64,000 bases of DNA from Candidatus Aquitaenariimonas noxiae (GCA_002780005.1 PEWV01000075.1:14133-78132), one strand, 5' to 3'. Counted from the first letter of the stretch, positions 10,992 to 44,394 are shown. The notes: a model not told the origin generated them from the sequence alone. Program-made: numbers and translations.

Positions 10992-11091
10992 TTTTAGTAA
11001 GATATATTTTTATCTCTAACGGGGTAAACCCGTGCTTAGGTTTTAGGTGATAGGTTATAGGTGATAGGTGTTTTAACATTTTTAAATAGAA

Positions 11092-29005: not shown

Positions 29006-29019
29006 TTTAGCTCCTTAAA

Positions 29020-29205
29020 CTATTTATTTTTCTTTTTCATTTGGTCTTTGTAATACAAATAGCACTTTTTGCACACCCCATCCGATTCGGCCCATTCCGG
29101 ATGTTTCTTTTTAATAGCACCCACTACGTGCCCCTCCGTATGGGAGATCATCATGAGTAGATCTCTTGGCATCGCCTTACCGCATGTAGGACAGATATAG
29201 TCCAT
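29020..29205 (-). CDS. small zinc-ribbon protein, hypothetical
   Basis: CPTCG ... CKKC cysteine pairs; 61 aa. Confidence 0.4.
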   Translation of the reverse strand: MDYICPTCGKAMPRDLLMMISHTEGHVVGAIKKKHPEWAESDGVCKKCYLYYKDQMKKKNK

Positions 29206-29217
29206 AATGATTTCCTT

Positions 29218-30174
29218 TTATAATTTTATTTTTCTGATTATATCTTTTAAAGTCTCTACCGAATGCTTAAGCTGTTTTTGTTCTATATCGGAAAGTTCCA
29301 GGTTCAGGAACCTCTCAGCCCCGCGAGCGTTGACAACCGAAGGAATGCTGAGGCAAACATCGTTTATGCCGTAGTAACCGTTTATTAAAGTCGAAACAGG
29401 AAGGACGGAATTTTCGTCCCGTAATATGGATTCTACGATCTTTACAAGAGCTAAACCTACAGCGTAATAGGTAGAGCCTTTTGCTTCTATGATTTTATAT
29501 GCCGCATTCTTGACTTCCTTAAAAATTTTATCAAACTCCATTTTGTAATCGCAATGTTTGCCGCAGGCCAGGCAATACTTATCTAAAGCGATCCCGCCTA
29601 TATTTGCGCGGCTCCAGACCGGAAGTTCGGTATCACCGTGCTCCCCTAAGATGTAGGCGTGGACATTTCTCGGGTCCACGCGGCAGTGCTCGCTTATTAA
29701 ATATCTCAACCTTGAACTATCCAAAACTGTGCCTGAACCTATGACGCGGCTTACAGGAAAATCTGATATTTTCAATGTTGCATAGGTAAGGATATCTACC
29801 GGATTTGTAACAATTAAAAAGATGGCGTCTTTAGCGTACTTCGAGATCTTGGGTATTATACTTTTAAAAATTTCGGTATTTCTCTGGACCAGATCTATCC
29901 TTGTCTCGCCGGGAGCCTGCTTAGCGCCGGCCGTTATGACTACGATACTGGCACCCTCGCATTCCTCATATCCGCCTGAAGCCACTTTAACAGGTTGAAC
30001 AAAACTTGCGCCGTGGTTTAAGTCCATCGATTCGCCTTTAGCGCGTTTTGCATCCATATCTATCATGGATATTTCCCTGGCTGATCCGCTTATCATCAAA
30101 GCGTACGCGAAACTGCTGCCCACGCTTCCGGTGCCGATTATAGCGACTTTAGACCGTACATTTTGCATTTTCAC
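29218..30174 (-). CDS. ldh: L-lactate dehydrogenase
   Basis: KVAIIGTGSVGSS; VVITAGAKQ (Gln at the substrate-specificity position); GEHGDT. Confidence 0.85.
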   Translation of the reverse strand: MKMQNVRSKVAIIGTGSVGSSFAYALMISGSAREISMIDMDAKRAKGESMDLNHGASFVQPVKVASGGYEECEGASIVVITAGAKQAPGETRIDLVQRNTEIFKSIIPKISKYAKDAIFLIVTNPVDILTYATLKISDFPVSRVIGSGTVLDSSRLRYLISEHCRVDPRNVHAYILGEHGDTELPVWSRANIGGIALDKYCLACGKHCDYKMEFDKIFKEVKNAAYKIIEAKGSTYYAVGLALVKIVESILRDENSVLPVSTLINGYYGINDVCLSIPSVVNARGAERFLNLELSDIEQKQLKHSVETLKDIIRKIKL

Positions 30175-30179
30175 TGCTC

Positions 30180-30827
30180 CTATTTCACTATATTTTTTAA
30201 TTGCGCCAGATCATCGATAATATAATCCGGCTTGGCTTTGACTATGTCCTCTTTTTTGCCGATACCGTATGTAACGGCGCAGGTAAAAACGCCGGCGCCT
30301 TTTCCGGCAAGCACATCTATATCCATATCGCCTACCATTATAGTCTTTTTTCTGTCAGCTATCTTAAACAAATCTATGACCTTATCCAAAGGGCATGAAG
30401 AAGGCTTCTTGCACCATAGATCGTCCCCGCCAAAAACGCCTTCAAAATAATCATATATCCCTAATTCCTTCATAGTGATCGCCGCGAATTCGTAATTCCT
30501 GTTCGTAGCTACGGCCTTCCGTTTATTTTTGAAATACTCAAGCACCTCCTTGACGCTCGGATACAGGTAAGAAGCGTCTGCGGCGTGCTTTCTATAATAT
30601 TGTTCGAATATTAAAAGCGCCTTTTCTAAAAGATGGTTATTTTTCATCTCGAGGGATTTTTCTACCAGATCCTGGACCCCGTTCCCTATATACGAAGAGA
30701 TCTCGGATCCTTTTTTTTCTTTAAGACCCAGTTCTCTAAGCGTAAAATTGACAGCGTTCGATATGTCTTCCCGGGAATCTACAAGGGTGCCGTCAAGATC
30801 AAATATAATAAGCTCTGTGTCTATCAT
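30180..30827 (-). CDS. HAD-family hydrolase (phosphoglycolate phosphatase-like)
   Basis: IIFDLDGTLVDS motif I; later K and GDxxxD motifs. Confidence 0.8.
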   Translation of the reverse strand: MIDTELIIFDLDGTLVDSREDISNAVNFTLRELGLKEKKGSEISSYIGNGVQDLVEKSLEMKNNHLLEKALLIFEQYYRKHAADASYLYPSVKEVLEYFKNKRKAVATNRNYEFAAITMKELGIYDYFEGVFGGDDLWCKKPSSCPLDKVIDLFKIADRKKTIMVGDMDIDVLAGKGAGVFTCAVTYGIGKKEDIVKAKPDYIIDDLAQLKNIVK

Positions 30828-30831
30828 GGCT

Positions 30832-31545
30832 TCAATATCCTATAAAATTTTCTGTCTTTATCATATTTTTCTGAATGTTCAACTTATCTTTTAAGATCTG
30901 CGCTAAGCCCTCAACCATCTTTGTCGGGCCGCAAATATAAAATACCCTTTCGGAAAAGTCGGGAATCTCTTCTTTTATCATTTGATCGTTTATATAGCCT
31001 ACCCTCCCGCGGTATACTTTTTTATCTATACCCTGCGCGGTTAATGTATGGACCACTTTAATGTTCTTATGGGCAGCACACATCTCGTCTAAATCTTCCT
31101 TGAACACTATATCAGACTCGGTATTGTTGCCATAGAGCAATACTATATCCGTGGGCAATTTTGTATCTGCGACAAATTTACACATGCTCCTTATGGGGGT
31201 TATTCCTATTCCGCCGGAAAGAAACGCTATTTTTTTATATTCTCCTTCGAATGTCATGGAGCCGTAGGGCATTTTCATATGCGCCGGATATCCGATTTTC
31301 ACTTTATTCAAAGTCTGCGAAAACGGGCTTTGCGTTATTCTTTTGGTGAATTCCAAATATCCTTTTTCTGTGGGGGAGTTGGAAAAAGAAAAATACTTTG
31401 ATTCGTCTTTCCCTTCAACTTTTATTGTAAAAAGAAAGAACTGCCCGGCCTTAAAATTAACGTCTGATGTAACTTTAAGCCTGAAACTTTTCACGTTGAA
31501 GGTTCTTTGTATTATATCTATTATTTCGGTATCGAATTCGATCAT
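30832..31545 (-). CDS. FAD/NAD(P)-binding oxidoreductase (ferredoxin-NADP reductase-like)
   Basis: GGIGITPIRSM NAD-binding motif; C-terminal YICGPTKM. Confidence 0.7.
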   Translation of the reverse strand: MIEFDTEIIDIIQRTFNVKSFRLKVTSDVNFKAGQFFLFTIKVEGKDESKYFSFSNSPTEKGYLEFTKRITQSPFSQTLNKVKIGYPAHMKMPYGSMTFEGEYKKIAFLSGGIGITPIRSMCKFVADTKLPTDIVLLYGNNTESDIVFKEDLDEMCAAHKNIKVVHTLTAQGIDKKVYRGRVGYINDQMIKEEIPDFSERVFYICGPTKMVEGLAQILKDKLNIQKNMIKTENFIGY

Positions 31546-31546
31546 A

Positions 31547-32713
31547 TCAGAATATTTTGTTTGCCAATATACCCAAGGCGACTACTTGCGGTACGGTAAC
31601 TAAGGGAAGGAAGATTGCCACTCTTTTCCCGACATTGAACCACAAAAGCCCTATCTCCGTATAATCCGTTACCACACCTGCCATCAAGAATACAAATGCG
31701 TTTCCGAGCGCTAACGTTTGTCTATATATCTCAAAAGCAAGCGGGGCTGTACCCTCCGAGCAAACTTCAAGCACGGTAGCGAGCGCAAGCGTTACAAAAA
31801 GCCCCATTGCAGTAGGCCCCATATATTTGTGAAATATATCGTGCGGAATATACGCTCCGGCTAAGCTCGCCAACCCTATGCCTATCAGTATCCACCATAA
31901 TACCATATTGGCCAGTGAAATTGAACCAGAAAATACACCTTTTACATCTTTTTTTATTGTTTCCATATTAAATTTATATGCTGCGAAATTCTTTTTAATC
32001 TCTTCAAATATGAAAAAATCTTCTCTTGTTGTTTTGATATTTTTGTTGCGCTCGATAAGGTCTTTCGAATCCAGGAATTGATATATAAACCCTGTTGTAA
32101 GCGCGATAATTAATGCGGAGATCACGATATAAAGCCCTTTCCAACCAAAAAGACTTACAAGCATTATGGTAAGCGGAAGGTTTGCCCATGGGCTTGCTAA
32201 AAGAAAGGCTACCACGGCAGGATTCGAAGCCCCCTTTTTGTGTAACTCAATAGAAAGCGCCAGGATACCATGGCTGCACGCGCTCATAAAGAACCCCAAT
32301 ATTACGGAATAAAATATTGTTCTCTTCTTTGGCCTGGAAAGAACATGGGATACGTACTCTCTGGCTACAAAATGGTCTATAACACCTCCCAAAATTAAAC
32401 CTAATAGTACTGCGAACCATATTTTTTGAAAATACATTACAAGCGTTTGTCTAAACGGAGTCAAAATCGAAAATTGGTATGAAAAAATAACGAGCATCGC
32501 TAACGCCGACACTGTTATTAATAGCTTATTTTGATACCATTTGGTATTTGGCTTAACTAAACAGATGGACAGCTCTTTATTATCGATGTGAGCATCTTTT
32601 GCGAATTTAAGAAGGCAATGTTTGCTGCAAAAATAGTAAGTCTCACTACCTCTGGTAAGCCTCAAGGCCTTGGCCTCATCTACGTTCATCCCGCATACAG
32701 GATCTTTTGCCAT
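31547..32713 (-). CDS. predicted permease with N-terminal YHS/TRASH metal-binding domain
   Basis: MAKDPVCGMNVDEAKAL...YYFCSKHC YHS domain followed by roughly 9 TM. Confidence 0.6.
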   Translation of the reverse strand: MAKDPVCGMNVDEAKALRLTRGSETYYFCSKHCLLKFAKDAHIDNKELSICLVKPNTKWYQNKLLITVSALAMLVIFSYQFSILTPFRQTLVMYFQKIWFAVLLGLILGGVIDHFVAREYVSHVLSRPKKRTIFYSVILGFFMSACSHGILALSIELHKKGASNPAVVAFLLASPWANLPLTIMLVSLFGWKGLYIVISALIIALTTGFIYQFLDSKDLIERNKNIKTTREDFFIFEEIKKNFAAYKFNMETIKKDVKGVFSGSISLANMVLWWILIGIGLASLAGAYIPHDIFHKYMGPTAMGLFVTLALATVLEVCSEGTAPLAFEIYRQTLALGNAFVFLMAGVVTDYTEIGLLWFNVGKRVAIFLPLVTVPQVVALGILANKIF

Positions 32714-32728
32714 TTAAACCCCTACAAA

Positions 32729-32790
32729 CAAAACCCCCTTTTAGAATAATTACCGGGCAATTTTTTCATAAAGGGGGTTTTGTCTTTTTT
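32729..32790 (-). terminator. terminator-like hairpin downstream of rubrerythrin
   Basis: AAACCCCCTT (32731-32740) pairs with AAGGGGGTTT (32771-32780); 30-nt loop; U-rich tracts flank both sides. Confidence 0.45.
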
Positions 32791-33380
32791 TAATAATTTT
32801 CGCAAAGTAACTCGTAATAACTCTGAGGGTGCGCGCACGCCGGGCATTCGGCAGGAGCCTCTTTACCTTCATGCACATATCCGCAGTTACGGCATTTCCA
32901 CTTAACTACCGTATCTTTTTTGAATACCTTGCCGTCTTTTATATTCTTCGCTAACTTTCTATATCTTTTTTCATGCTGCTCTTCTACTTCTGCTATTTCT
33001 TTAAATTGCTTGGCTATTTCTTCAAAACCTTCCTTGCAGGCTGTTTCTTCGGCTTCTTTATATAGCTTTGTCCACTCAAGGTTTTCTCCTGACGCCGCGG
33101 CTCCGAGATTTGACATCGTATCCTTTATGATCCCGGCAGGATATGAAGCGATGATCTCTACTTCTCCGCCTTCTAAATACTTAAAAAATCTTTTCGCATG
33201 CTCCTTTTCGTTCTCGGCTGTCTCAAGAAATATCGCTGATATCTGTTCATAGCCCTCCTTCTTCGCGGCAGACGCGAAATAGGTATAACGATTCCTCGCT
33301 TGAGACTCCCCTGCAAACGAAGCCAGAAGGTTCTTTTCTGTCTTTGTCCCCTTCAATCCCTTTGTTTTTGTCAATGCCAT
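32790..33380 (-). CDS. rbr: rubrerythrin (N-terminal diiron ferritin-like domain, C-terminal rubredoxin-like CxxC...CxxC)
   Basis: ExxH pairs plus C-terminal CRNCGY...CPACAHP. Confidence 0.9.
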   Translation of the reverse strand: MALTKTKGLKGTKTEKNLLASFAGESQARNRYTYFASAAKKEGYEQISAIFLETAENEKEHAKRFFKYLEGGEVEIIASYPAGIIKDTMSNLGAAASGENLEWTKLYKEAEETACKEGFEEIAKQFKEIAEVEEQHEKRYRKLAKNIKDGKVFKKDTVVKWKCRNCGYVHEGKEAPAECPACAHPQSYYELLCENY

Positions 33381-33397: not shown

Positions 33398-33556
33398 TTA
33401 GATTTTTTCAAACATATCTTTTGCAACATTGCAAATAGGGCAAACCCAGCCATCCGGCAGATCCGAAAATGCCGTGCCTGGCTTTATCCCATTATCCGGG
33501 TCACCTTTTTCCGGATCATACACATAATCGCACACTGTGCAGCGATATTTATCCAT
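33398..33556 (-). CDS. rd: rubredoxin (52 aa), not in ORF track
   Basis: Own translation [52 protein letters not shown]; classic CxxC...CPxC rubredoxin. Confidence 0.85.
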
Positions 33557-33560
33557 GATC

Positions 33561-34757
33561 TTACCCTTTCTTTTTTACAATATCCGCAAAACTTTTTCCG
33601 TATTCATAGCACTTTTTTAATTCATCCTTATCAGGCGCGAATCTGGCCACAATAGCCTGTTGCGCTATTTCTACACCTGCTTTCTTAAGATATCCCTCGA
33701 TAGACCCTGTAGCACCGCCTGCCCAGCCATAGGATCCGAAACTGCAGCCGATCCTGTTCTTAGGCCTTAAGCCTTTTAAGAACTCCAAAAAGCCAGCGAT
33801 ATTTATAAGAAGGTCATTGTCATGCGTTGACGAGCCTATGATATAACCTTTGGCATCGAGCATCTCTTTGATCACCGTTGTGCGGTCAGTTTGATTGACA
33901 TCAAAAAGTTTTACGCTCACGCCTGAATCCGCCACACCTTCCGCTATTTTCTTTGCCATCTTCTCCGTAGAGCCCCACATTGTCTCATAGACAATAACAA
34001 TCTTTGGCTTTACTTCATTCTTTGCCCAGGAAACGTATGCATTCACGATTTTCATCGGGTCCTTCCGCCATATTATGCCGTGACTGGGCGCTATTATTTT
34101 TATAGGAATACCCATCTTTTGAACTTCTTCTATTTTTCTCAGAACAAGAGCGCTTAAAGGCCATAAGATATTACCGTAATACTTCGCCGATTCCTCCATA
34201 AGTGAAGGCGCGTCAACCTCATCGTCAAACCTCTCGGATGACGCGTAATGTTGGCCAAAGGCATCATTAGGTAAAAGTAAGGCGTCTTCGGCGATATAAG
34301 TAAACATACTGTCAGGCCAATGAAGCATTGGCGCCTCCAAAAAAGTAAGCGTTCTCCTGCCCAATTTTAATTTGTCGCCCGTTTTAACAACCTGGAAATC
34401 CCAGTCACCGTAGTAATACCTATAAAGGCCTTCTTTACACTTAGATGTCCCTATAACCTTAGCCTTCGGGCAAAGTTTCATTATTTCAGGAAGCGCTCCG
34501 GAATGGTCCATTTCCACGTGATTGGCAACAATGTAGTCTATTTTTTCCGGAGGGACGATTTGCCTGATATTTTCTATCATCTCCTGAGCAAAGGGACCGT
34601 AAACGGTATCTATGAGGGTGATCTTCTCGTCTACAATAAGATAGGCATTATATGTAGTTCCTCTGCTGGTCGTATATGTGTGCCCGTGAAAATTCCTTAT
34701 GTTCCAATCGACTGCTCCAACCCAATAAATGCCTTCTAATATCTTTACGGCGGACAT
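33561..34757 (-). CDS. fprA: flavodiiron protein (FprA / rubredoxin:oxygen oxidoreductase type)
   Basis: N-terminal MBL-like diiron domain (HxExDH: HVEMDHSG) and C-terminal flavodoxin domain; 398 aa. Confidence 0.9.
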
Positions 34758-34785: not shown

Positions 34786-35172
34786 TTAGCCTTCCACTTC
34801 GATGTCTTTGGTGCCTTGCCACAAACCGTGCATATTGCACTTTGCTATTGCTTTTAAAGGACCGTGGGCATGGCTAAGCTTTACTTTAAACAAAGCAACG
34901 GGATAGCTTGTCCCACCGCTATATTGCGCCCTTCCCAAGAAGGTATTTCCGCAATATAGCTCGACCCATTCTATAGAATGAGCAGGCTCATTAGGATGCG
35001 CCAACAAAGTCCCAACTTCAACTTTAACGTCAAAAGGCTGGTCCTTATTAACAGCGCTCGGCGCGCTTATAGTGGGAATGTGCTTCTTTTCTAAATCCGA
35101 CAAATTATTTTTGTCCTTAGGCAACTTTACTCCGCAAAGTATATCGTCGTCACAAGTCCATTTATTTTCCAT
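34786..35172 (-). CDS. sor: superoxide reductase (desulfoferrodoxin/neelaredoxin family; N-terminal domain lacking full Cys4 centre I)
   Basis: Centre II ligands HxxxH...CNxHGLW present. N-terminal domain has only 2 Cys (class III-like). Confidence 0.8.
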   Translation of the reverse strand: MENKWTCDDDILCGVKLPKDKNNLSDLEKKHIPTISAPSAVNKDQPFDVKVEVGTLLAHPNEPAHSIEWVELYCGNTFLGRAQYSGGTSYPVALFKVKLSHAHGPLKAIAKCNMHGLWQGTKDIEVEG

Positions 35173-35214
35173 TTCATACCTCCTTTTCTAAATATTACAT
35201 TCTACTATATATAG

Positions 35215-35739
35215 TTAAATTCCAGTTTTTTGCTCGGTCAATATTATGTGGTCTGACTCTATTTCCGTAAGGGCCTTGAAAAACTCCTTAATTTCTTCCT
35301 CAGACACTTGCCGCATCGCCTCTGTGTAGAATTTAACCGCCCTTTTCTCTCTTTTGTTAGATTCTTCTATGTTCTCCTTATCCGAGTCAAGGGCTTTGTC
35401 GCTTCCGACATTAGAATCGGGTTTTTCTATTTTTAAGTGCTTACATATCGTCGAAGCATGCTCTCTCTCGATTTTTGAGAGGCCCTTAAACATGCTTGAC
35501 ACGTAAACATCTTTGCTTTTTTCCGATACAGCCTTATAAAAATTAGTATTATCTATTTCAAGCTCGAGGGCCTTTTGCAGATGCTCTTTCGATGCGCCTG
35601 ATAAGGTTTTGCTTTCTAAGAGCTTCCAATCTTTTGCCAGAACAAAATACTTTTCATGCGCCCCGCAAAAAGGGCATGTATTGGGTCTTTCTCGTCCTAT
35701 ATAAACCTCGCCGCATATTCTGCAACGATATACTTTCAT
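35215..35739 (-). CDS. reverse rubrerythrin (N-terminal rubredoxin-like domain, C-terminal diiron domain)
   Basis: N-terminal YRCRICGEVY...CPFCGA followed by ferritin-like ExxH motifs. Confidence 0.8.
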   Translation of the reverse strand: MKVYRCRICGEVYIGRERPNTCPFCGAHEKYFVLAKDWKLLESKTLSGASKEHLQKALELEIDNTNFYKAVSEKSKDVYVSSMFKGLSKIEREHASTICKHLKIEKPDSNVGSDKALDSDKENIEESNKREKRAVKFYTEAMRQVSEEEIKEFFKALTEIESDHIILTEQKTGI

Positions 35740-35749
35740 AAAATTCTCC

Positions 35750-36256
35750 TTATTTTTTCTTTAAAAAATTTATGATCTCTTTGCAGAATGCGGGTAAGTC
35801 ATATGGGTTACGTGAAGTAATGAGATTACCGTCTACGACAACCTCACTATCTACAAATTTCGTCCCTGCATTTATTAAATCGTCTTTTATGGCAAAAAAC
35901 GATGTCGCCTTTTTGCCTTTTAAAATTCCGGCAGAAGCAAGCACCCATCCCGCATGGCATATGGCGGCAACCAGCTTATCTTTTTGGTACATACTTTTTA
36001 CAAATTCATTAACTTCTTTATATCTTCGTAAAATGTCAGGCGCGTACCCGCCGGGGATAACCACGCCTTGGAAATCGTCTACTTTTATCTTCTGGATAGC
36101 TTGCTCCTCTTTGGCTGGATAACCTTCTTTACTTTTATACTCACCTTTTCCCGTCCCAACAAGAACTGTTTCCACGCCTTCTTCTCGTAAACGCAAATAA
36201 GGATACCAGACTTCCAATACCTGATAATTATCTTCCACCAAAATCGCTATTTTCAT
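35750..36256 (-). CDS. DJ-1/PfpI family protein
   Basis: AAICHAGWVL nucleophile-elbow Cys; 168 aa. Confidence 0.8.
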   Translation of the reverse strand: MKIAILVEDNYQVLEVWYPYLRLREEGVETVLVGTGKGEYKSKEGYPAKEEQAIQKIKVDDFQGVVIPGGYAPDILRRYKEVNEFVKSMYQKDKLVAAICHAGWVLASAGILKGKKATSFFAIKDDLINAGTKFVDSEVVVDGNLITSRNPYDLPAFCKEIINFLKKK

Positions 36257-36275
36257 AATAGCCTCTCTTTAATGT

Positions 36276-37019
36276 TTAGTGAAAATACTCTGCGGCCAAT
36301 CTGCCAAGGAAGAAACCCGCGCCGCATGAAATCGCCCCTGTAATTAAAGTTTCCAATCCGCTCATGAGCCAGTGCGCTTTTGTGATTTTGGTCTTTATTA
36401 TACCTAAAAAAAAGAGAAACGTCAAAACCGATATCACGGAAGCGCTTAAGGCCCTATTTGTATTATCGAAAATAAAAAATGGCAACAGGGCAGGAAGTGT
36501 CCCGACGAAAAACGAAACCGCTGATATAAAACCTATTTACAAGGGATTATCAATAGACCCCGGGGTTATTCCTATTTCCTCCTGTGCCATAAATTCAAGC
36601 CATCTTTCTTTATTTGCCGTAATACGTTTTACAGCTATTTCTTGTTCGTCTTTCGCGAAACCCATTTCGTTAAAAATATATCTTATTTCCTGCCTTTCTT
36701 TTTCCGGGTCTTCTTCTATTTCTTTTCTCTCGCGTTCGATTTGACTTTCAAAAAAATGCTTTTGCGCCCTGGTCGAAACATATGCCCCGAAGAATATGGC
36801 CAGGGTACCCGCCGTTACCTGGATCATACCTGCTAATATCACTTTATTTATCGCTATCAAAGAAACAGAAACGCCGGCAAGAAAGGAAACCGTGGTCACC
36901 AGGCCCGTATCAATCGAATAAACAACGTCTCTTATAAGCCTTCCTTTTTCGGTATGCCATTCCTCGCCGTGCCAGGCCTTAAGCCTTTTTTCTAGCGGGC
37001 TTTTTATCATTCGCCTCAT
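36276..37019 (-). pseudogene. VIT1/CCC1-family iron/manganese transporter interrupted by a single in-frame TAA
   Basis: ORFs 36537..37019 (N-terminal part with cytoplasmic loop RERKEIEEDPEKERQEIRYIF) and 36276..36485 (C-terminal TMs) are in the same frame, separated by one TAA after ...GSIDNPL. Confidence 0.55.
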
Positions 37020-37245
37020 CTTTCTTCATTTTTTTAGTCTTATAAAAATCTCCGCCTATGCATTGCGGCGCGTATTTACACCAGTCAATGCAGGAAGGCA
37101 TATTTTTTCTATAAACGTAATTCTTGCATTTGGGGCATTTGGTTTTAACTTCATCGGAAAAAATCTCTACCTTGTACCCGCAATTCCCGCATTTTACGAG
37201 GCTAACCTTGAGGTAACGAGAATCTGTGCCGGGGCATTTGATCAT
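36979..37245 (-). CDS. Cys-rich small protein (zinc-ribbon-like), hypothetical
   Basis: 88 aa with CxxC pairs (CGNCGY, CPKCK) and DWCKYAPQC. Confidence 0.4.
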   Translation of the reverse strand: MIKCPGTDSRYLKVSLVKCGNCGYKVEIFSDEVKTKCPKCKNYVYRKNMPSCIDWCKYAPQCIGGDFYKTKKMKKDEANDKKPARKKA

Positions 37246-38084
37246 AGCAATTCACCTCTTATGCTAACGGTTACTTCTTTAAACGGTATCTTTTTCCCCG
37301 ATCCTGAAATAGCTGTTTTGATAACACCTACTAAACCGAAACAGCAGGGAACTTCCATATGAGCGTAGGTTGCGGATCTTATATTATTACTTTTTAAGAT
37401 TTGTGTTATTTTTTCTTGGTAGGCTCCGGTATCGTCAAGCTTTGGACATCCTACCAAAAGAATCTTTCCTTTTAATAACTCATCATGAAAGTCCGGATAC
37501 GCAAAAGGAACGCAGTCTGCCGCGATTAATAAATCAGCTTCCTTAAAATAGGGCGCATTTACAGGAACTAAAGAGATCTGAACAGGCCATTGTCTTAGCC
37601 TGGATATTCCCTTATGGGAAGATTTTTCCTTTTTAAACGTGCCTTCTTTTTCTCCTAGATCCATGACCCTTGAATCAGGGCAGCCGGAAAAACCATGCGA
37701 ATGGCCCGGGGCTTCGGCGCTTTCTTCAAGAGACGGGACCTTTATGCCCTTATTCTTTAAAACATCAACAGCTTGCTTCAGATACGCCTCTTCATTATGA
37801 TCTTTCAGGTGCTTGAGATGGGCTTTTATAACGTTTTTGCCCTGTTTTATTATATTTTCCATAACTTTTCGCTCATCATACTTCTCCGCTTCTCTTTCTT
37901 CTATATTAATAGCGCCCTCGGGGCAATGCCCTATGCAGGCTCCTAACCCGTCGCAAAAAAGATCGCTGATAAGTCTGGCCTTATTATCTATTATTTGCAG
38001 AGCGCCCTCAGGGCAATTCGGTATGCATAATCCGCACCCCGTGCATTTTTCTTCATCTATTTTTATTATTTTTCTTTTCGCCAT
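37242..38084 (-). CDS. 4Fe-4S dicluster domain protein with Cys-containing C-terminal domain of unknown function
   Basis: CTGCGLCIPNCP and CDGLGACIGHCP ferredoxin motifs. Probably co-transcribed with rrf2 (13-nt gap). Confidence 0.6.
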   Translation of the reverse strand: MAKRKIIKIDEEKCTGCGLCIPNCPEGALQIIDNKARLISDLFCDGLGACIGHCPEGAINIEEREAEKYDERKVMENIIKQGKNVIKAHLKHLKDHNEEAYLKQAVDVLKNKGIKVPSLEESAEAPGHSHGFSGCPDSRVMDLGEKEGTFKKEKSSHKGISRLRQWPVQISLVPVNAPYFKEADLLIAADCVPFAYPDFHDELLKGKILLVGCPKLDDTGAYQEKITQILKSNNIRSATYAHMEVPCCFGLVGVIKTAISGSGKKIPFKEVTVSIRGELL

Positions 38085-38096
38085 ATTATTTACCCC

Positions 38097-38492
38097 TCAT
38101 AATAAACATTCAAGCGTAATATCGCTTAGTTGCGAGAGAAGACCTTTCTCTATGTTGTCCAATTTTTTCTTAAGTTTACATTTACCCGTATCAGGACATA
38201 GCCTAGATTTAAACAAATGATCGCTGACTTTAAGCGAACCCTGGCATGCCGTTATCAGGTCCACTAATAATATCTGAGCAGGCCTTTTACTTAATTTAAA
38301 ACCGCCGCCTTTACCCTTGTAAGATTTAAGCAGCCCCTTCTTGCTCAAGACCTGGAGTATCTTTCTTAAGAACGGTTTCGGGATCTTTAATTCTTTCACC
38401 AGCTCCGATACAGAGGTCAGCTCTTTATCATTTTTCGCTATAAAACGCAGGGCCCTCACCGCATAATCCGTATCCCTTGTGATCAATTTCAT
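38097..38492 (-). CDS. Rrf2-family transcriptional regulator (probable Fe-S cluster-binding)
   Basis: N-terminal wHTH (TDYAVRALRFIA); three Cys (CQGS...C...C) typical of IscR/NsrR-like members. Confidence 0.8.
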   Translation of the reverse strand: MKLITRDTDYAVRALRFIAKNDKELTSVSELVKELKIPKPFLRKILQVLSKKGLLKSYKGKGGGFKLSKRPAQILLVDLITACQGSLKVSDHLFKSRLCPDTGKCKLKKKLDNIEKGLLSQLSDITLECLL

Positions 38493-38510
38493 ACTGTCTC
38501 CGGTTAATAT

Positions 38511-38540
38511 AATGATACTGTATTAGTATCTTTTTGTCAA
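38511..38540 (-). promoter_or_regulatory. sigma70-like promoter (TTGACA-17-TATCAT) overlapped by palindrome AATGATACTGTATTAGTATC, upstream of rrf2
   Basis: On the gene strand: TTGACAAAAAGATACTAATACAGTATCATTATATT. Near-identical module upstream of the YHS lipoprotein gene at 42164-42194. Confidence 0.5.
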
Positions 38541-38567
38541 GGAAAAAATTTCCACAAAAATCAGTTT

Positions 38568-40304
38568 TTATCTGAAAAATATTCTGTCGACGTCCTCTTT
38601 ACTGACGGCCTTATGTAATCGTTTGGATATTGTCTTATCGGGCCTCTTGTGATTCAACAGTTCGCACTTTATACTTGATAATTTAGAGGCCGCTACGCTG
38701 AAACTGCGCAGCCCAACGCTCAGCAGTAAAGGATAAAATTCTTCGAAACTGGCAACTTCGCCGCACAGGCAAACCTCTTTCTTGTGGGTTTTTCCCGATT
38801 TAACGACAAGTTCTATAAGTTTCACTAGAGAAGAATGTAAGATGTGATATCTTTTTTCTATTAGCGGATTGCCGCGGGAAGCGGCAAGCGTGTATTGCAA
38901 AAGGTCATTTGAGCCTATATTGACAAAATCAACATTCTTTATAAGCGAATCCAATAAGAGGGCCGCTGACGGAGTTTCCACCATAATGCCTTCTTTAATA
39001 CTTTTCTTGAATTTTTTACCCTCTTTTTTAAGGCTGGTTTTCGCGGACACGATCAATTTCTTGAATAAGTCTATATCGCTCATATCCGATATCATAGGAT
39101 ACAGGACTCTTAGGTCTCCAAAAACAGCTGCCCTAAGGATCGCCTTGACTTGCACCAGATATATGTCATAAAAGAAATCCAGCGCCCTTACACCCCTTAT
39201 GCCCAGATCAGGATTTTCCTGCGGCGGAAGATTTAAGTAAGGCGGCAACTTGTCAGGACTAATGTCCAAAAGTCTTACAGTAACGGGGAGGCCTTTGGCT
39301 TCTTCCAATATATGTTTATACATATTAAATTGCTCTTCTTCTGACGGAGGTGTTTCTTTGTTTAAAAAAAGAAATTCTGTCCTAAGCAAGCCTACCCCAT
39401 CGTATTGAAGTCCTCTCAATAGCTCTATTTCACCCGGCGTGCTAATATTGGCTTTTAACTTAATTCTAAGGCCTTTTTGAGTCTTGGAAGGCGCGTCTTT
39501 TACTGAAACACACACGGCTTTCCTTTTTTGAATATCCGATATCTTATTCGAATAGCGATCAAGCGTGGCCTGATCCGGAGAAACAAATACTTTACCGTCA
39601 AATCCGTCAACTATAATCTTATCACCGCATTTAATATTGACCTCTACGCTAACGCCAAAAACTACAGGCACATTGTAACCTCTTGCCAGAATAGTCGCAT
39701 GAGTAGTGAAGCCGCCTTCTTCGGTTACAAATGATAAAACATGTTCCTTAGGGATATTCAGCACCATTGAAGTGGTTAATCTTTTAGACACCACGATAAC
39801 AGGCTGCCTCTCGCCCACCGGGCATTCGAAATGACCTGCGAGATTGCCAAAAGATACCAAAAGCCTATTTCTAACATCTCTTACATCATGGGATAACTCT
39901 GAAAAATGAAGCTCACTTTTTTCATATGTTTTTACATATTCTTCAAAGGCATCACTTACCGCGTGTTCGGCATTAACCAATTTGGTGTTTATTAGATCCT
40001 TCATTCTTTCAAGTAGTACAGGGTCATCTAATATTAAGACGTGAGCGCTAAAGATTTCGCTCGCGCGTTTATCGAATAATTTTTCCGCAGCACGAGCCAT
40101 GCTTCCCATTGTTTCTTTGGCCTTCTTAATAGCTTCTTCCAGGCGAAGGATCTCCCCCTTAGTCCTATCTTTTTCTATTACATAGTGGGGGATCTCTTCT
40201 TCGACCTTTTCGGCATACAAACAGGCCGTTCCTATCACTACGCCGGAAGATGCCACCACACCTTTTAATATCTTCATAAAAATACGCTCCTTAGATTCAA
40301 GCAA
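38568..40304 (-). CDS. ptsI: phosphoenolpyruvate-protein phosphotransferase (PTS enzyme I-like); no HPr or EII genes in window
   Basis: EIN region, phosphohistidine domain (GGFTTHATILARGYNVPVV), C-terminal PEP-binding barrel (GLLRTEFLF ... MVETPSAA ... NDLLQYTLA). Confidence 0.8.
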   Translation of the reverse strand: MLESKERIFMKILKGVVASSGVVIGTACLYAEKVEEEIPHYVIEKDRTKGEILRLEEAIKKAKETMGSMARAAEKLFDKRASEIFSAHVLILDDPVLLERMKDLINTKLVNAEHAVSDAFEEYVKTYEKSELHFSELSHDVRDVRNRLLVSFGNLAGHFECPVGERQPVIVVSKRLTTSMVLNIPKEHVLSFVTEEGGFTTHATILARGYNVPVVFGVSVEVNIKCGDKIIVDGFDGKVFVSPDQATLDRYSNKISDIQKRKAVCVSVKDAPSKTQKGLRIKLKANISTPGEIELLRGLQYDGVGLLRTEFLFLNKETPPSEEEQFNMYKHILEEAKGLPVTVRLLDISPDKLPPYLNLPPQENPDLGIRGVRALDFFYDIYLVQVKAILRAAVFGDLRVLYPMISDMSDIDLFKKLIVSAKTSLKKEGKKFKKSIKEGIMVETPSAALLLDSLIKNVDFVNIGSNDLLQYTLAASRGNPLIEKRYHILHSSLVKLIELVVKSGKTHKKEVCLCGEVASFEEFYPLLLSVGLRSFSVAASKLSSIKCELLNHKRPDKTISKRLHKAVSKEDVDRIFFR

Positions 40305-40812
40305 TGACTTTCTTTAAAGCCGAAAGTGCGGCCTCATAATTCGGATGGGAAGACAGCTCAGGCACATATTCGACATACCTGGCTATATTATTTTTATCTA
40401 ATATAAAAATTGCCCTTGCCAGGAGCCTTAATTCCTTTATTAAAACTCCGTATTTGGATCCGAAATCAGCGTCTCTATGGTCAGAAAATGTTTTCACCTT
40501 TTTGATATCATTATCATGGCAAAATCTTTTTTGCGCGAAAGGCAGATCCATAGAGATAAAAATAATGACCAGGTCTTTTGATAATTTGCTCGCTTCATCG
40601 TTGAAGCGTTTTATTTCCAGATCGCAGACAGGCGTATCCAGGGAAGGCGCCGATGCGATTAATTTTATCTTGCCGGCAAACTTATCCAGGGAGACTTCGG
40701 CCAGTTCATTGTCTAAAACGGTGAAGCCTGGCGCCTTTGTCCCAAGTTTTATTTCTTCCCCGATCAATGTCAACGGTTTCCCTTTCACGGTTACCGCGTT
40801 TTGTCTTTCCAT
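40297..40812 (-). CDS. tpx: thiol peroxidase (Tpx, atypical 2-Cys peroxiredoxin)
   Basis: SLDTPVCDLE peroxidatic Cys context; resolving Cys near FAQKRFC. Confidence 0.85.
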   Translation of the reverse strand: MERQNAVTVKGKPLTLIGEEIKLGTKAPGFTVLDNELAEVSLDKFAGKIKLIASAPSLDTPVCDLEIKRFNDEASKLSKDLVIIFISMDLPFAQKRFCHDNDIKKVKTFSDHRDADFGSKYGVLIKELRLLARAIFILDKNNIARYVEYVPELSSHPNYEAALSALKKVIA

Positions 40813-40823
40813 AAAACCCCCTT

Positions 40824-41375
40824 CTATACTACCCTGCTGATAATATCCGATAAAACCACTATATCCTCCGTGCAGAAGATTTCTTTTACGCTTTGATCAA
40901 AGAGTATGTTCGCTTCGGCTGAAAACTCGTCATCCTGGCCCCATACGGTAACAAGCACGGGCACGAAATCAAAAGCTTCCAATACTATTCCGCCGTCTCC
41001 GTATTGAATGGCTTTTCCCGGTAATCTTTCCAGGCAAGAAACAATACCTTGAGGCATTTTGCCGTATTTACGGCCGATCAACTCAAGGGATCTTTTTTTA
41101 AATGCATCATAATAACCCTGGCCGCCAGGCAACTCCTGGAAAGATATCCACTTTCCGGTAACTTCGGGTAAACCCTGTATTTTTTTAGCCAAATAATGCA
41201 GTATCAAAATAGAAACGTGTTCATGCGGAGGAATGTTGCAGGATAATGAAACAACCTGATGGGAGGATAAATCAATACTATAATTGTCAGCTAAAAATTT
41301 AATATCAGAAATATTATCTGCTTTAAATTCTTTAAGCTTGACCCACGCCTTTTCCAGCGCATCCTTGTAGCTCAT
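40824..41375 (-). CDS. hypothetical protein
   Basis: 183-aa ORF with no motif I can assign; well-formed ORF in operon context. Confidence 0.4.
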   Translation of the reverse strand: MSYKDALEKAWVKLKEFKADNISDIKFLADNYSIDLSSHQVVSLSCNIPPHEHVSILILHYLAKKIQGLPEVTGKWISFQELPGGQGYYDAFKKRSLELIGRKYGKMPQGIVSCLERLPGKAIQYGDGGIVLEAFDFVPVLVTVWGQDDEFSAEANILFDQSVKEIFCTEDIVVLSDIISRVV

Positions 41376-41615
41376 GTTAACTTCTTTTAGACCATCCCGG
41401 CTATTGCCTGTTCCAAGGAAATGGCCGGTATCGCATCTGGTTATTTAGGCTTTGGCTTCTTCTTATCCTGGCAACCGCAGGTTTTGCACATACTTTCCTC
41501 CTTTTTCATTTAATCGGGCTATCTTATTCTACCAATAATTCTTATATATATTTTAGCATACAGCAAGAAGCTTGGAAACTTATTTTTGAAACATAATTAA
41601 TAAAAATAGTGGGCA

Positions 41616-41677
41616 GTTTACCCCGTTAGAGATTTATTCTCCAACGGGATAAACCCCAATCTCTAACGGGGTTTAAC
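41616..41677. repeat. hairpin built from two inverted copies of the ATCTCTAACGGGGT motif (14-bp perfect stem, 25-nt loop containing a third degenerate copy)
   Basis: ACCCCGTTAGAGAT 41620-41633 and ATCTCTAACGGGGT 41659-41672. Confidence 0.8.
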
Positions 41678-41815
41678 GTCGTGCCCGGGACTTAATACCG
41701 CAGCCCTCTTTACAATGGGCGACTGGACGTAGCATGTATCTAACATTTACCCACATATATCCTCCTTATTTTCTTAATTTGTTTTATCTTCAAAAGTGGA
41801 AAACTCTACTTTTCC

Positions 41816-42135
41816 TTAATTGGATGCTGCCTTCAGTTTTGTCGAATATTTCTCAGGATCGGCTTTAAAAACATCTGCACATGACGGGCAACAGAAACCC
41901 ACTGTCTTACCTTTATACTCAGTCGTATAAGGAGTATCTCCCGAAACCTTTCCTCCCAAAACCGGGCATTCGGTATTATAAACCTTGCCTTTCTCTACCG
42001 TACTAGCCGCGCCTGCGGCGCAACTAACTCCGGTTGCTCCTTGGGGGCCGCTTGATCCGCATCCTGCGTAGGCCCCTGCGGCAAAAAATGTCAACGTTAT
42101 GATCGCTATCAGAGCTATTAGTATAGTCTTATTCA
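41816..42135 (-). CDS. YHS-domain lipoprotein (putative metal-binding)
   Basis: Start revised to MNKTILIALIAI... (GGAGG SD). The longer ORF-track start would overlap purF. Lipobox-like AGAYAGCG; C-terminal YHS/TRASH (GFCCPSCADVF). Confidence 0.6.
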
Positions 42136-42163
42136 TATTGTTCACCTCCTCTTTACTTACTAT

Positions 42164-42194
42164 GTAATGATACCATATTAGTATCATTATGTCA
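42164..42194 (-). promoter_or_regulatory. sigma70-like promoter (TTGACA-17-TATCAT) overlapped by perfect palindrome TAATGATAC-CATATTA-GTATCATTA, upstream of the YHS lipoprotein gene
   Basis: Same architecture and near-identical half-sites as the rrf2 upstream module at 38511-38540. Confidence 0.5.
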
Positions 42195-42203
42195 AGAAGA
42201 AAA

Positions 42204-43577
42204 TTATTTTTTTTCCAGGATGCATTTTGACATTCTACCGCAGGGTTTGGCCGGGTAATTCCCATCAAAACAGGCCGTGCAGAATTCCTCTTTCGGGATC
42301 GGCATGGATTTGAGCATACCTTCTTTGCTTAAATACTCAAGGCTATCCAGACCGATAAAATCTTTTATCCATTTTATGCTGTGATTCGACGCTATTAATT
42401 CCTTTTTAGTCGGGAAATCTATACCGTAAAAACACGGGAACCTAAGCGGCGGACAGCTTACCCGCATATGGACTTCTTTAGCTCCAGCTTCCCGCAGTGT
42501 CTTTACCCTGACCCTGCTCGTTGTCCCGCGGACTATAGAATCTTCTATAATAACTGTGCGCTTATTTCTTAGGACATCTTTTATCGGATTAAGTTTTACC
42601 CTGACTCTGAAATCCCTTATAAACTGTGACGGCTGAATAAATGTCCTCCCAACATAATGGTTCCTTATCAAGGCTGCTTCATATGGGATCCCGGATTCTT
42701 CTGAAAAACCTAAAGCGGCGTAATTCCCCGAATCGGGCACAGGCATCACGAAATCGCCTTTAGCGGGAAATTCTTTTGCCAGCTGCTTGCCCAAACGCTT
42801 CCGGGTTAAATAAACATTCTGGCCAAAAATATTGCTATCGGGCCTGGCAAAATATATATATTCAAATATGCAAAACGAATGTTTCTTTCCAGAAAAAGGT
42901 TTTTGAGACTCTATGCCTTTCTTGCTTATAAAAACTATCTCACCTGGCTCAACTTCCCTGATATATTCCGCATTTATCAAGTCTAGCGCGCAGGTTTCGC
43001 TCGCCAATACATAGGCATCGTCCAATTTACCGATACAAAGCGGCCTCCATCCGCCCGGATCCCTTGCTCCGGCCAAGTATCCGTTAAGCATGAGTACAAG
43101 CGAATACGCCCCTTCAAGCCCGGATAAGGCGTCAACAAGATTTTGCCTGTGGTCCGGGCTTTGTGATTTAGCTAAAAGATGAACTATTGTTTCGGAATCC
43201 ATTGTAGTCTGAAAGATAGAACCCCTACCTTCCATATCATGTCGCAGCTTGAAAGCATTTGTAAGGTTACCGTTATGAGCGATAGCTATATGCCCCTTAC
43301 TATGGTTTACAGAGAACGGCTGGATGTTTTTGGAAATGCTTGAACCTGTCGTTGAATAGCGAACATGTCCTATCGCTACGTCGCCGCGCAGCGACTTTAT
43401 GCTTTTTTCATCAAATACATCTCCGACCAGGCCCATACCCTTATGGGACATGATCTTTTTTTCGCTTGAGACAACTATGCCTGCGCTTTCTTCGCCGCGA
43501 TGCTGGAGCGCGTAAAGGCCCAGATAAGTAAGCCGCGCCGCGTCTTTATGCCCATATATACCGAATATCCCGCACAT
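42204..43577 (-). CDS. purF: amidophosphoribosyltransferase
   Basis: MCGIFGIYGH Ntn-Cys start; PRT domain; C-terminal Fe-S Cys. Confidence 0.9.
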   Translation of the reverse strand: MCGIFGIYGHKDAARLTYLGLYALQHRGEESAGIVVSSEKKIMSHKGMGLVGDVFDEKSIKSLRGDVAIGHVRYSTTGSSISKNIQPFSVNHSKGHIAIAHNGNLTNAFKLRHDMEGRGSIFQTTMDSETIVHLLAKSQSPDHRQNLVDALSGLEGAYSLVLMLNGYLAGARDPGGWRPLCIGKLDDAYVLASETCALDLINAEYIREVEPGEIVFISKKGIESQKPFSGKKHSFCIFEYIYFARPDSNIFGQNVYLTRKRLGKQLAKEFPAKGDFVMPVPDSGNYAALGFSEESGIPYEAALIRNHYVGRTFIQPSQFIRDFRVRVKLNPIKDVLRNKRTVIIEDSIVRGTTSRVRVKTLREAGAKEVHMRVSCPPLRFPCFYGIDFPTKKELIASNHSIKWIKDFIGLDSLEYLSKEGMLKSMPIPKEEFCTACFDGNYPAKPCGRMSKCILEKK

Positions 43578-43581
43578 ACAC

Positions 43582-44394
43582 TTATATCCTCACAGGAATG
43601 CCTCTATCCTTAAGGTATTCCTTTGCCTCTCTGATCGAATATTTCCCGTAATGAAAAATAGATGCCGCAAGAACGGCATCAGCCCTGCCTGTTGTTAGCG
43701 CCTCATAAAGATGTTCTAAATCCCCTGCGCCGCCCGATGCTATAACCGGGATATTTACGGTTTCTGATATAGCCTTTGTCAGCTTCAGGTCATAACCCGC
43801 TGTCGTTCCGTCCATATCCATGCTGGTAAGCAGGATCTCGCCGGCCCCTGATCGTTCTGCCTTTTTTGCCCATTCGACCGCGTCAAGGCCGACCGGTTTT
43901 CTACCGCCGTAGGCATATACTTCCCATTTCTTTTTTTTGCTATGGACTATGGACTGTGGGCTGTGGACTAACTTCGCGTCTATGGCAACCACTATGCACT
44001 GGCTGCCAAATTCCTCGGATGCTTCTTTAATCAATGTAGGGTTTTCTATTGCCGCTGTATTTATAGAAACCTTATCGGCCCCAGATTTCAAGAGCTGTCT
44101 TATATCGCTTATATTTCGAATGCCGCCTCCAACCGTCAAAGGTATAAAGACCTGCTCTGCTGTTTTTATGACCACATCTAAAAATGCCTGGCGTTTTTCA
44201 ACGCTTGCTGTTATGTCTAAGAATACTACTTCGTCCGCGCCTTCTTTGGAATAGAAGGCTGCTGTCTTGACAGGGTCTCCCGTGTCTTTAAGGTCCAGGA
44301 AATTAATACCCTTCACAACTCTTCCGTCTTTTACATCCAGGCATGGTATTATTCTTTTAGTCAGCCCCGTTAGAAACTTAGCTCTTTCTACCAT
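43582..44394 (-). CDS. hisF: imidazole glycerol phosphate synthase cyclase subunit HisF
   Basis: [16 protein letters not shown] ... full HisF barrel. Carries the N-terminal extension [13 protein letters not shown] and an internal [14 protein letters not shown] segment encoded by heptamer repeats. Confidence 0.9.
43941..43968. repeat. 4 x 7-nt tandem repeat T(A/G)TGG(A/G)C inside hisF, next to a T8 run (43931-43938)
   Basis: TATGGAC TATGGAC TGTGGGC TGTGGAC. Confidence 0.8.

Follow-up and report, generated by a model that had tools for sequence, protein, structure and literature searches.

NsrR of Streptomyces coelicolor (ScNsrR), an Rrf2-family protein, recognises a 23-bp site whose AA/TT ends are conserved and whose 7-bp centre tolerates sequence changes, and it is autoregulatory, acting as a repressor of nsrR (PMC4432287, PMC9338935). 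The four ligands of its [4Fe-4S] cluster are C93, C99, C105 and D8 (PMC5411485). The published NsrR motif of proteobacteria and Bacillus is gATGyAT-N5-ATrCATc (Rodionov et al. 2005, PMC1274295). Here we describe a predicted promoter-operator system in a 64,000-nucleotide stretch of DNA from Candidatus Aquitaenariimonas noxiae (GCA_002780005.1, PEWV01000075.1:14133-78132; hereafter the window), in which a 23-bp palindrome overlaps two promoters, one upstream of an rrf2 gene and the other upstream of a gene for a YHS-domain lipoprotein. The palindrome is very probably the operator of the adjacent Rrf2 protein, which would act on it as a repressor; we found no published description of this operator or of this Rrf2 clade in the literature. 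Our best explanation of the whole, to which we assign a probability of about 0.8, is that an NsrR-like iron-sulfur (Fe-S) repressor occludes both promoters and would be released by oxygen, nitric oxide (NO) or reactive oxygen species (ROS). The names O1 and O2 are used below for the two predicted operators only.

Two promoters of the window share a predicted operator

The minus strand holds all genes of the region. The pattern TTGACA-N17-TATCAT has exactly two matches in the 64-kb window, both on the minus strand, at 42195..42167 and 38540..38512, and these lie ahead of the YHS lipoprotein gene and of rrf2, as had been claimed in an earlier note on this DNA. An independent consensus scan ranked the same two promoters at the top of the region with 11/12 matches each, and on the YHS side it also detected an extended -10 TG. 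The YHS operon promoter (42167..42195, minus strand) consists of a -35 TTGACA at 42195-42190, a 17-nt spacer ending in TGG (extended -10) and a -10 TATCAT at 42172-42167, while the rrf2 promoter (38512..38540, minus strand) has its -35 TTGACA at 38540-38535, a 17-nt spacer and its -10 TATCAT at 38517-38512. On the minus strand, the stretch leading into the YHS gene reads CTTGACA-TAATGATACTAATATGG-TATCAT-TACATAGTAAGTAAAGAGGAGGTGAACAAT-ATG and that leading into rrf2 CTTGACA-AAAAGATACTAATACAG-TATCAT-TATATTAACCGGAGACAGT-ATG; the rrf2 leader is short, with about 19 nt from the -10 to the ATG. Transcription is predicted to begin some 7 nt beyond 42167 and 38512.

The palindrome, 23 bp long and of the form AATGATAC-N7-GTATCATT, extends at both promoters from right after the -35 through the -10. 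At the predicted operator O1 (42166..42188), which occupies the spacer and -10 of the YHS operon promoter, it is a perfect 8-7-8 palindrome, AATGATAC-CATATTA-GTATCATT. The predicted operator O2 (38511..38533) reads AAAGATAC-TAATACA-GTATCATT on the minus strand, with a single mismatch in the -35-side half, and AATGATAC..GTATCtTT on the plus strand. The earlier note was right to place a palindrome in the spacer and -10 of both promoters, but its coordinates need small corrections: the first site ends at 38533 and not at 38530, and the second starts at 42166 and not at 42164. The TGTCAAG that it described beside each palindrome is present, but is the -35 hexamer in plus-strand reading.

With a weight matrix built from related sites, O1 scored 36.0 bits and O2 26.3 bits, and the next best position in the window scored 3.0 bits. 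Among 100 shuffled windows used as a control, the top score was 20.5 and the 95th percentile 12. No third AATGATAC-N7-GTATCATT site with up to three mismatches was found in the 64-kb window beyond O1 and O2, where by our estimate, at 42% G+C, about 4e-5 perfect palindromes per 64 kb would be expected by chance.

The palindrome is conserved upstream of related rrf2 genes

Starting from an alignment of 27 relatives, we retrieved 80 genome loci, mostly from metagenome-assembled genomes (MAGs) of Omnitrophota, that encode Rrf2 proteins 52-65% identical to that of the window. We found TTGACA(A)AATGATAC-N7-GTATCATT in most of the 90-base stretches upstream of rrf2 in these protein-selected loci. Together the loci comprise 1.12 Mb and contain 53 perfect palindromes and 21 with one mismatch, where about 8e-4 perfect copies would be expected by chance, as estimated from base composition for 16 specified bases. 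The site lies no more than 300 bp upstream of rrf2 in 66 of the 80 loci, and in nine others it is found further upstream, directed towards rrf2 and mostly at the head of a co-directional string that includes it. It is interrupted in two loci, by a contig end (L032) and by masked bases (L051), and no site was found in three (L005, L028, L043), two of which have little upstream sequence. Distant Rrf2 paralogues in the same loci (27-32% identity) have no adjacent site. The half-site variant of O2, AAAGATAC, is also present in three of the fetched loci (L022, L029, L045).

Promoters upstream of rrf2 were also located by TTGA[CT]A-N16/17-TATCAT alone, leaving the palindrome out of the search. Of the 56 promoters so located, 44 begin their spacer with the eight bases AATGATAC, while nine differ from it at one base and three at two. 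The spacer is 16 nt long in about two thirds of the loci and 17 nt in one third, the latter including both window sites, and the register of the palindrome with the -10 is constant across loci while the -35 shifts by one base. Since the left half is not needed for promoter function and mirrors the -10 half, its conservation argues for an operator rather than a mere promoter. Likewise, since the arrangement is a mirror-symmetric 8-7-8 in which the half inside the spacer is under no less constraint than the half containing the -10, the constraint appears to reflect the need of a dimeric DNA-binding protein and not that of RNA polymerase. The regulator's own promoter is near consensus, and there, in orthologues as well, the palindrome overlaps spacer and -10, as is characteristic of an autoregulated repressor; the shared promoter-operator with repressor geometry proposed in the earlier note is strongly supported. 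We rejected a reading of the palindrome as a bidirectional promoter, as the sequence downstream of the site, in which a second -35 would have to lie, shows no conservation.

In several orthologues the rrf2 ATG follows the -10 by only 6-7 nt (offsets -28 to -30; L003, L015, L026, L048 and L073, site offset -28; L066, L040). This spacing implies leaderless rrf2 transcripts, and the leaderless geometry gives independent support for TATCAT as the true -10.

Loci chosen by the motif alone lead to the same regulator

An exact-pattern scan of metagenome contigs that used only the motif returned at least 120 loci. About half of the metagenome matches listed have no adjacent -35 and look like background. 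Among the matches listed, 65 sites have a -35-like element, and about 45 have a member of this Rrf2 clade as the first or second downstream gene. Other -35-bearing sites head genes known from rrf2 operons, encoding YHS (L082, L173) or ferredoxin-like proteins (L116, L129), and those in L086, L101 and L151 head either sORF27, a short conserved peptide gene described below, or strings of rubrerythrin, ferritin and superoxide reductase (SOR) genes. Since the protein-selected and motif-selected loci agree, the link between motif and regulator holds in both directions, and the adjacent Rrf2 protein stands as the candidate binding protein that the earlier note had taken it to be.

At one of these loci (L103, 762-785) the palindrome has -35-like elements on both sides and apparently serves divergent promoters. 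The first gene there encodes a cupredoxin-type lipoprotein and has a second, weaker site at 899, and the opposite promoter leads to rrf2.

Metagenome matches without an adjacent TTGACA were not accepted as operators and were treated as background, including a recurrent unrelated palindrome, AATGATACGTAATACGTATCATT (or ..GTATTAC..). This fully palindromic 23-mer occurs in unrelated contigs without a -35 and without rrf2, in two copies in L096 and also in L113, L118 and L126, with a variant in L168, L176, L188 and L198, and is probably a different repeat element.

Fold and candidate cluster ligands of the Rrf2 protein

The candidate repressor is a protein of 131 aa (38097..38492, minus strand) that belongs to the Rrf2 family (Pfam Rrf2, E = 9.5e-29), scoring 100.6 bits against PF02082 (cut-off 30) and 102.4 against TIGR00738 (cut-off 73.3). 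Its AlphaFold 2 (AF2) model, with a predicted local distance difference test score (pLDDT) of 87, adopts a winged helix-turn-helix and dimerisation-helix fold. All 38 PDB matches of the model at E <= 0.001 are Rrf2 proteins, and the best superposition was obtained with 7B0C, [4Fe-4S]-NsrR on a 23-bp operator (template-modelling score, TM, 0.86; root-mean-square deviation 2.2 A). Among the NCBIfam subfamily models, RirA scored best at 75.9 bits against a cut-off of 193; the scores were 66.4 against 110.65 for the SUF regulator model, 59.3 against 182 for the NsrR equivalog NF008240, which was built on enterobacterial NsrR, and 50 against 207.55 for IscR, and the HypR and CymR models scored lowest; the protein is accordingly not classed as a RirA, NsrR or IscR by these models. 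Since these scores lie far below the cut-offs, the subfamily was assigned by ligand positions and fold.

Of 216 distinct family members, all 216 have both C99 and C105. Position 92 is either Cys (181) or His (35), the latter in the window protein, and D9 is present in 212. The family profile aligns C/H92, C99, C105 and D9 to C93, C99, C105 and D8 of ScNsrR (5N07), and the protein thus shows the ligand pattern of the [4Fe-4S] NsrR-type Rrf2 subgroup, with three loop ligands after helix 5 and an Asp from the partner. The three cysteines to which the earlier note had pointed have to be replaced by this set, given that C83 is found in only 3 of the 216 members (Phe in 207); C129 is found in 14. 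The predicted cluster ligands are most likely H92, C99 and C105 together with D9 of the partner subunit. Residues P38-Q47 and G60-F65, which make up the recognition helix and wing, do not vary within the family, in keeping with a half-site that is itself nearly invariant. We also noted that the operator is unchanged between relatives with Cys92 and those with His92, a natural swap at a probable Fe-S ligand.

Genes behind the operators

We clustered up to eight co-directional open reading frames (ORFs) behind each of 147 sites, a crude chain and not an operon prediction, and confirmed the identities of the gene families in these strings with Pfam. Rrf2 is encoded in 120 of the 147 operator-headed strings, ferredoxin-like proteins (Fer4/AF_0155) in 66, zinc-ribbon proteins in 54 and members of the rubredoxin, rubrerythrin and SOR group in 47. 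FNR-like reductases (32 strings), Hcp (30), flavodiiron proteins (23), NifU domains (19), sORF27 (16), hemerythrin domains (15) and Tpx (10) are less frequent, and NADH:rubredoxin-type oxidoreductases (NROR) and ferritin (9 each), DUF3786 (8), PfpI (7) and VIT1 (5) complete the set. Many members are oxygen and ROS enzymes, and no hmp gene was seen among the 147 strings. No iron-uptake genes were found behind the operators, where iron export and storage genes are present, nor was an isc or suf operon found there, only a small NifU-domain gene recurring. The operator-headed gene set corresponds to the usual equipment of strict anaerobes for defence against oxygen, ROS and NO, plus iron storage and export.

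The autoregulation and lipoprotein control envisaged in the earlier note are supported by these comparisons, as YHS homologues lie directly behind the operator at three further loci (L052, L082, L173), but the predicted regulated unit is far larger than one lipoprotein gene and is the oxygen, NO and iron defence array of the organism.

A predicted Fe-S repressor and the alternatives to it

In the mechanism that we propose, an Rrf2 dimer on the palindrome would cover the promoter from just past the -35 through the -10 and exclude RNA polymerase, and two near-consensus sigma-70-type promoters would be blocked by the same repressor. The promoter at O2 would drive rrf2 and the ferredoxin-like, zinc-ribbon, VIT1, PfpI, rubrerythrin, superoxide reductase, flavodiiron, rubredoxin and YHS-permease genes, and that at O1 the YHS lipoprotein, sORF27, DUF3786, thiol peroxidase and PtsI-like genes. 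An Fe-S cluster held by H92, C99, C105 and the partner's D9, as in [4Fe-4S] NsrR, would give a holo form that binds DNA. Damage to the cluster by oxygen, NO or ROS would then release the repressor, and the oxygen and NO detoxification and iron-sequestration genes of this anaerobe would be derepressed. We favour a repressor because a bound dimer would exclude RNA polymerase, as known for the family, and because near-consensus promoters need no activator; holo-form binding and release by cluster damage are proposed because of the ligand pattern and the gene content. That the protein is specifically an Fe-S sensor of oxygen, NO or ROS is a part of this proposal that we consider only slightly more likely than not.

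One alternative, which we judge quite unlikely, retains the operator and repressor as described and makes the protein a RirA-like iron sensor whose cluster would report iron supply and whose regulon would serve iron and metal homeostasis. RirA is the best-scoring NCBIfam subfamily model, and the regulon includes VIT1, ferritin, NifU and two YHS proteins, while a gene for a ZIP transporter lies further downstream. The 75.9 bits are, however, far below the RirA cut-off, most of the regulated genes encode enzymes of oxygen, ROS or NO detoxification, and a holo-repressor that was lost when iron ran low would switch on iron export and storage, a physiologically senseless response. D9, moreover, aligns with the Asp ligand of NsrR. 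The RirA operator is the IRO box TGA-N9-TCA, which the operator described here does not resemble.

We consider it improbable that the same operator and repressor are governed by a cluster-free thiol switch, in which C99 and C105 would form a disulfide or undergo S-modification, as in HypR or oxidised CymR. C99 and C105 are the sole invariant cysteines, and the regulon is oriented to oxidative stress, both of which such a switch would fit, yet it leaves unexplained why position 92 admits Cys and His only and why D9 is retained in 212 of 216 members. The residue pattern is instead typical of metal ligands and matches the four ligands of ScNsrR position by position, and the HypR and CymR models are the lowest-scoring of the Rrf2 subfamilies.

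It is highly improbable that the palindrome is not bound by this Rrf2 and is instead a strong promoter variant or the site of another operon factor such as the zinc-ribbon protein. Its right half includes the -10 and would be conserved regardless, and rrf2 is often accompanied by the zinc-ribbon and ferredoxin-like genes. The left half, however, falls within a spacer with no promoter sequence requirement and is yet an equally conserved exact mirror, the -35 shifts by one base against the palindrome (16- or 17-nt spacers), which must thus be constrained independently, Rrf2 is present in 120 of the 147 strings against 54 for the zinc-ribbon protein, and Rrf2 dimers are known to bind 23-bp palindromes (PMC9338935).

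Several points weigh against an NsrR-like Fe-S repressor at both promoters. No NCBIfam subfamily model reaches its cut-off with the window Rrf2, and the half-site and spacing of AATGATAC-N7-GTATCATT fail the published NsrR motif, the outer ATG..CAT triplets lying 4 bp further apart here. With only two invariant cysteines in the family, a switch that needs no cluster is conceivable. Many of the loci come from MAGs and short contigs, the chaining of ORFs was crude, such that some of the genes counted may not be co-transcribed, and the continuity of the operons in the window was deduced from spacing and from the absence of strong consensus signals. The support for the Rrf2-operator reading is computational and consists of the sites, the promoter geometry, their conservation, the linkage to the Rrf2 clade and the gene content. 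From these we infer that the protein physically binds the site, that it represses and does not activate, that it carries a cluster and which effector it responds to.

The rrf2 array of the window

A co-directional, tightly spaced array headed by both operators runs from 42195 to about 30832, and the same locus was recovered in three independent groundwater assemblies. The genes behind rrf2, all on the minus strand, are separated by gaps of at most 76 nt. The first encodes a ferredoxin-like protein of 280 aa with two [4Fe-4S] motifs and a C-terminal AF_0155 domain (PF27217; 37242..38084), the most constant partner of rrf2, and is followed by the gene for the second constant partner, a Cys-rich zinc-ribbon protein of 88 aa with weak Zn-ribbon matches only (36979..37245). 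Behind these lie a VIT1-family iron/manganese transporter gene (36276..37019), interrupted by an in-frame TAA at 36537-36539, and genes assigned by Pfam to a DJ-1/PfpI protein (35750..36256), a rubrerythrin with an N-terminal rubredoxin-like domain (35215..35739), a desulfoferrodoxin-type superoxide reductase (34786..35172), a flavodiiron protein of the O2/NO reductase type (33561..34757), a rubredoxin (33398..33556), a second rubrerythrin (32790..33380) and a permease with an N-terminal YHS and an ArsP_1 domain (31547..32713). The last gene assigned to the regulated array (30832..31545) encodes an FNR-like FAD/NAD(P) oxidoreductase of the same family as that found in related operons (cluster c4). 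No promoter-like site of at least 10/12 was found on the minus strand from 36300 to 30800; one 11/12 match lies inside the VIT1 gene, at 36425..36397. Since the spacing is tight and strong consensus promoter signals between the genes are lacking, the two operators may head one or two long transcription units. Past the FNR-like gene the same strand continues, at gaps of 4-14 nt, with genes for a HAD hydrolase and a malate/lactate dehydrogenase, a 61-codon ORF and a gene for a ZIP metal transporter (28268-30827).

The in-frame TAA of the VIT1 gene (..NPL*IGF..) replaces a GAA present in four relatives (..NPLEIGF..). Since three independent assemblies of the source organism give the same truncated 157-aa gene call, the stop probably reflects a genuine nonsense mutation and not an error of assembly. 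The VIT1 gene of one related locus (L001) has a different in-frame stop.

The ferredoxin-like proteins, about 72% identical across relatives, and the zinc-ribbon proteins trail rrf2 in most loci and are more conserved than the regulator itself. The AF2 model of the ferredoxin-like protein has a mean pLDDT of 61 and is confident in the C-terminal domain only, and a Foldseek search with it against the PDB returned nothing better than E = 0.04. One could envisage the clade as a distinct three-gene sensory module of Rrf2, the AF_0155 di-cluster ferredoxin and the zinc-ribbon protein, in which the ferredoxin would reduce or rebuild the sensor cluster, the Cys or His first ligand would tune sensitivity and sORF27 would be a new regulatory or metal-handling element, but we hold this to be speculative and on the whole unlikely.

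The YHS operon and sORF27

The first gene behind O1 (41816..42136, minus strand) encodes a YHS-domain protein of 106 aa (Pfam YHS, E = 3e-11) with a signal peptide and a lipobox-like Cys (..AGC). Its start is the ATG at 42136, which is preceded by AGGAGG, and not the TTG of the longest ORF. It is followed on the same strand by sORF27 (41673..41756), by genes for a DUF3786 protein (40824..41375) and a thiol peroxidase of the Redoxin/AhpC-TSA type (40297..40812), both identified with Pfam and recurrent in related operons, and by a gene for a 569-aa protein resembling enzyme I of the phosphotransferase system (PTS), a phosphoenolpyruvate-utilising protein (38568..40277). This last gene ends 28 nt before the rrf2 -35, and in a few related loci a PtsI-like gene is placed after rrf2.

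sORF27 encodes a conserved Cys/His peptide of 27 aa (MWVNVRYMLRPVAHCKEGCGIKSRARR), and the variation at third codon positions over MLRPVAHCKEGC indicates that it is coding. Across loci it is a conserved ORF of 25-27 codons with the consensus MDITIKYMLRPVAHCKEGC..., encoding an HCxxxC peptide behind a strong ribosome-binding site (RBS). At 13 sites it directly follows the operator. Copies occur in L004, L018, L023, L025, L055, L076 and other loci, and the ORF is often the first gene after the operator or lies beside YHS genes.

A nearly invariant non-coding box, GTCCYGGGYAnGACrnTAAACyrCC, follows sORF27 on its 3' side (41611-41691 in the window). RNAalifold found no consensus structure in 27 sORF27 regions (-1.7 kcal/mol), and a simple hairpin does not explain the box. 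An Rfam scan of 35000-44000 at E <= 1 returned only a spurious long non-coding RNA match and no known RNA element at the promoters or near sORF27. Three further readings of the box were set aside. In a pseudoknot of three plus three pairs, drawn by eye, the paired bases are all invariant. In a sigma-54 promoter, likewise read by eye, the GG-to-GC spacing would be 4 nt too long, and GGCAC is unconserved. A continuation of the peptide in another frame is contradicted by stops that precede the box in L008 and L019, and no frame is cleanly synonymous.

In the window the box is split by a palindromic repeat with terminal inverted repeats CCCCGTTAGAGAT (41621-41671), with TAAAC duplicated. Further copies lie at 10897-11026, about 26162 and about 44365; since the copy at 10897-11026 is also flanked on both sides by TAAAC, the element looks like a miniature inverted-repeat transposable element. 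Related insertions occur at the same TAAAC of the box in L139 and L196, and a different insertion follows its GTCC in L075 and L078. Between sORF27 and the DUF3786 gene lies a 22-codon ORF, sORF22 (MKKEESMCKTCGCQDKKKPKPK; 41441-41509, minus strand), with an RBS-like AAGGAGG inside it, before an internal ATG. It has no relatives in any fetched locus and for that reason is probably not a gene.

Comparison with known systems

For specialists the result holds no surprise, and the known mechanism of Rrf2 proteins is unchanged by it. The Omnitrophota are anaerobes, mostly ultra-small, that have not been brought into culture and about whose regulation hardly anything has been learned, and for them a concrete, testable circuit is gained. 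Its components are a single repressor, a 23-bp operator that is nearly constant throughout the group and a defined set of genes for defence against oxygen and NO and for iron. No culture of the organism would be needed to rebuild this circuit in E. coli or in vitro, the operator can serve as a search key for mapping the regulon in any MAG, and the natural Cys/His variation at one cluster ligand offers a ready series for the study of how Rrf2 sensors are tuned.

The system shares with ScNsrR the Rrf2 winged-helix fold (7B0C being the best match, TM 0.86), the aligned ligand positions, a 23-bp operator with AA...TT ends and a 7-bp centre, and autoregulation, which is predicted here. It differs in that the proteins are only about 22-24% identical, the half-site has another sequence and position, and the first ligand is His here and in 16% of the clade. 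ScNsrR, moreover, controls only hmpA1, hmpA2 and nsrR, whereas the set found here is a broad one of oxygen, ROS, NO and iron genes in which no hmp was seen. The NsrR proteins of E. coli and Bacillus are Rrf2 repressors of hcp-hcr, of ytfE/dnrN-type di-iron proteins and of NO-detoxifying enzymes (PMC1274295), and genes for Hcp, an FNR-like reductase and hemerythrin-domain proteins likewise stand behind the operator here; an N-terminal TDY motif, read by eye, is common to both. IscR, RsrR and RirA, all of which were found by the profile and fold searches, have the same fold and a C-terminal Cys-rich loop for the cluster, but the His107-type ligand of IscR and the Glu8/His12 ligands of RsrR are unmatched here, and their operators are unlike ours in length and sequence (29 and 39 bp in solved complexes). 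We would file the clade as an uncharacterised NsrR-like Fe-S Rrf2 clade and not as NsrR, because it fails both the NsrR equivalog score and the published motif, despite having the ligand set, the fold and the operator architecture in common with NsrR.

In gene content the parallel lies outside the family. PerR is a Fur-family sensor that works by metal-catalysed oxidation, and in Clostridium acetobutylicum it reportedly holds off rubredoxin, reverse rubrerythrin, desulfoferrodoxin, flavodiiron protein and NADH:rubredoxin oxidoreductase until oxygen or ROS appear, in work by Hillmann and colleagues from 2008-2009. PerR would be a functional analogue with the same effector gene set but a different fold, operator and chemistry, and not a family relative. 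By this comparison, the Rrf2 protein and its operator would take the functional place that PerR has in clostridia.

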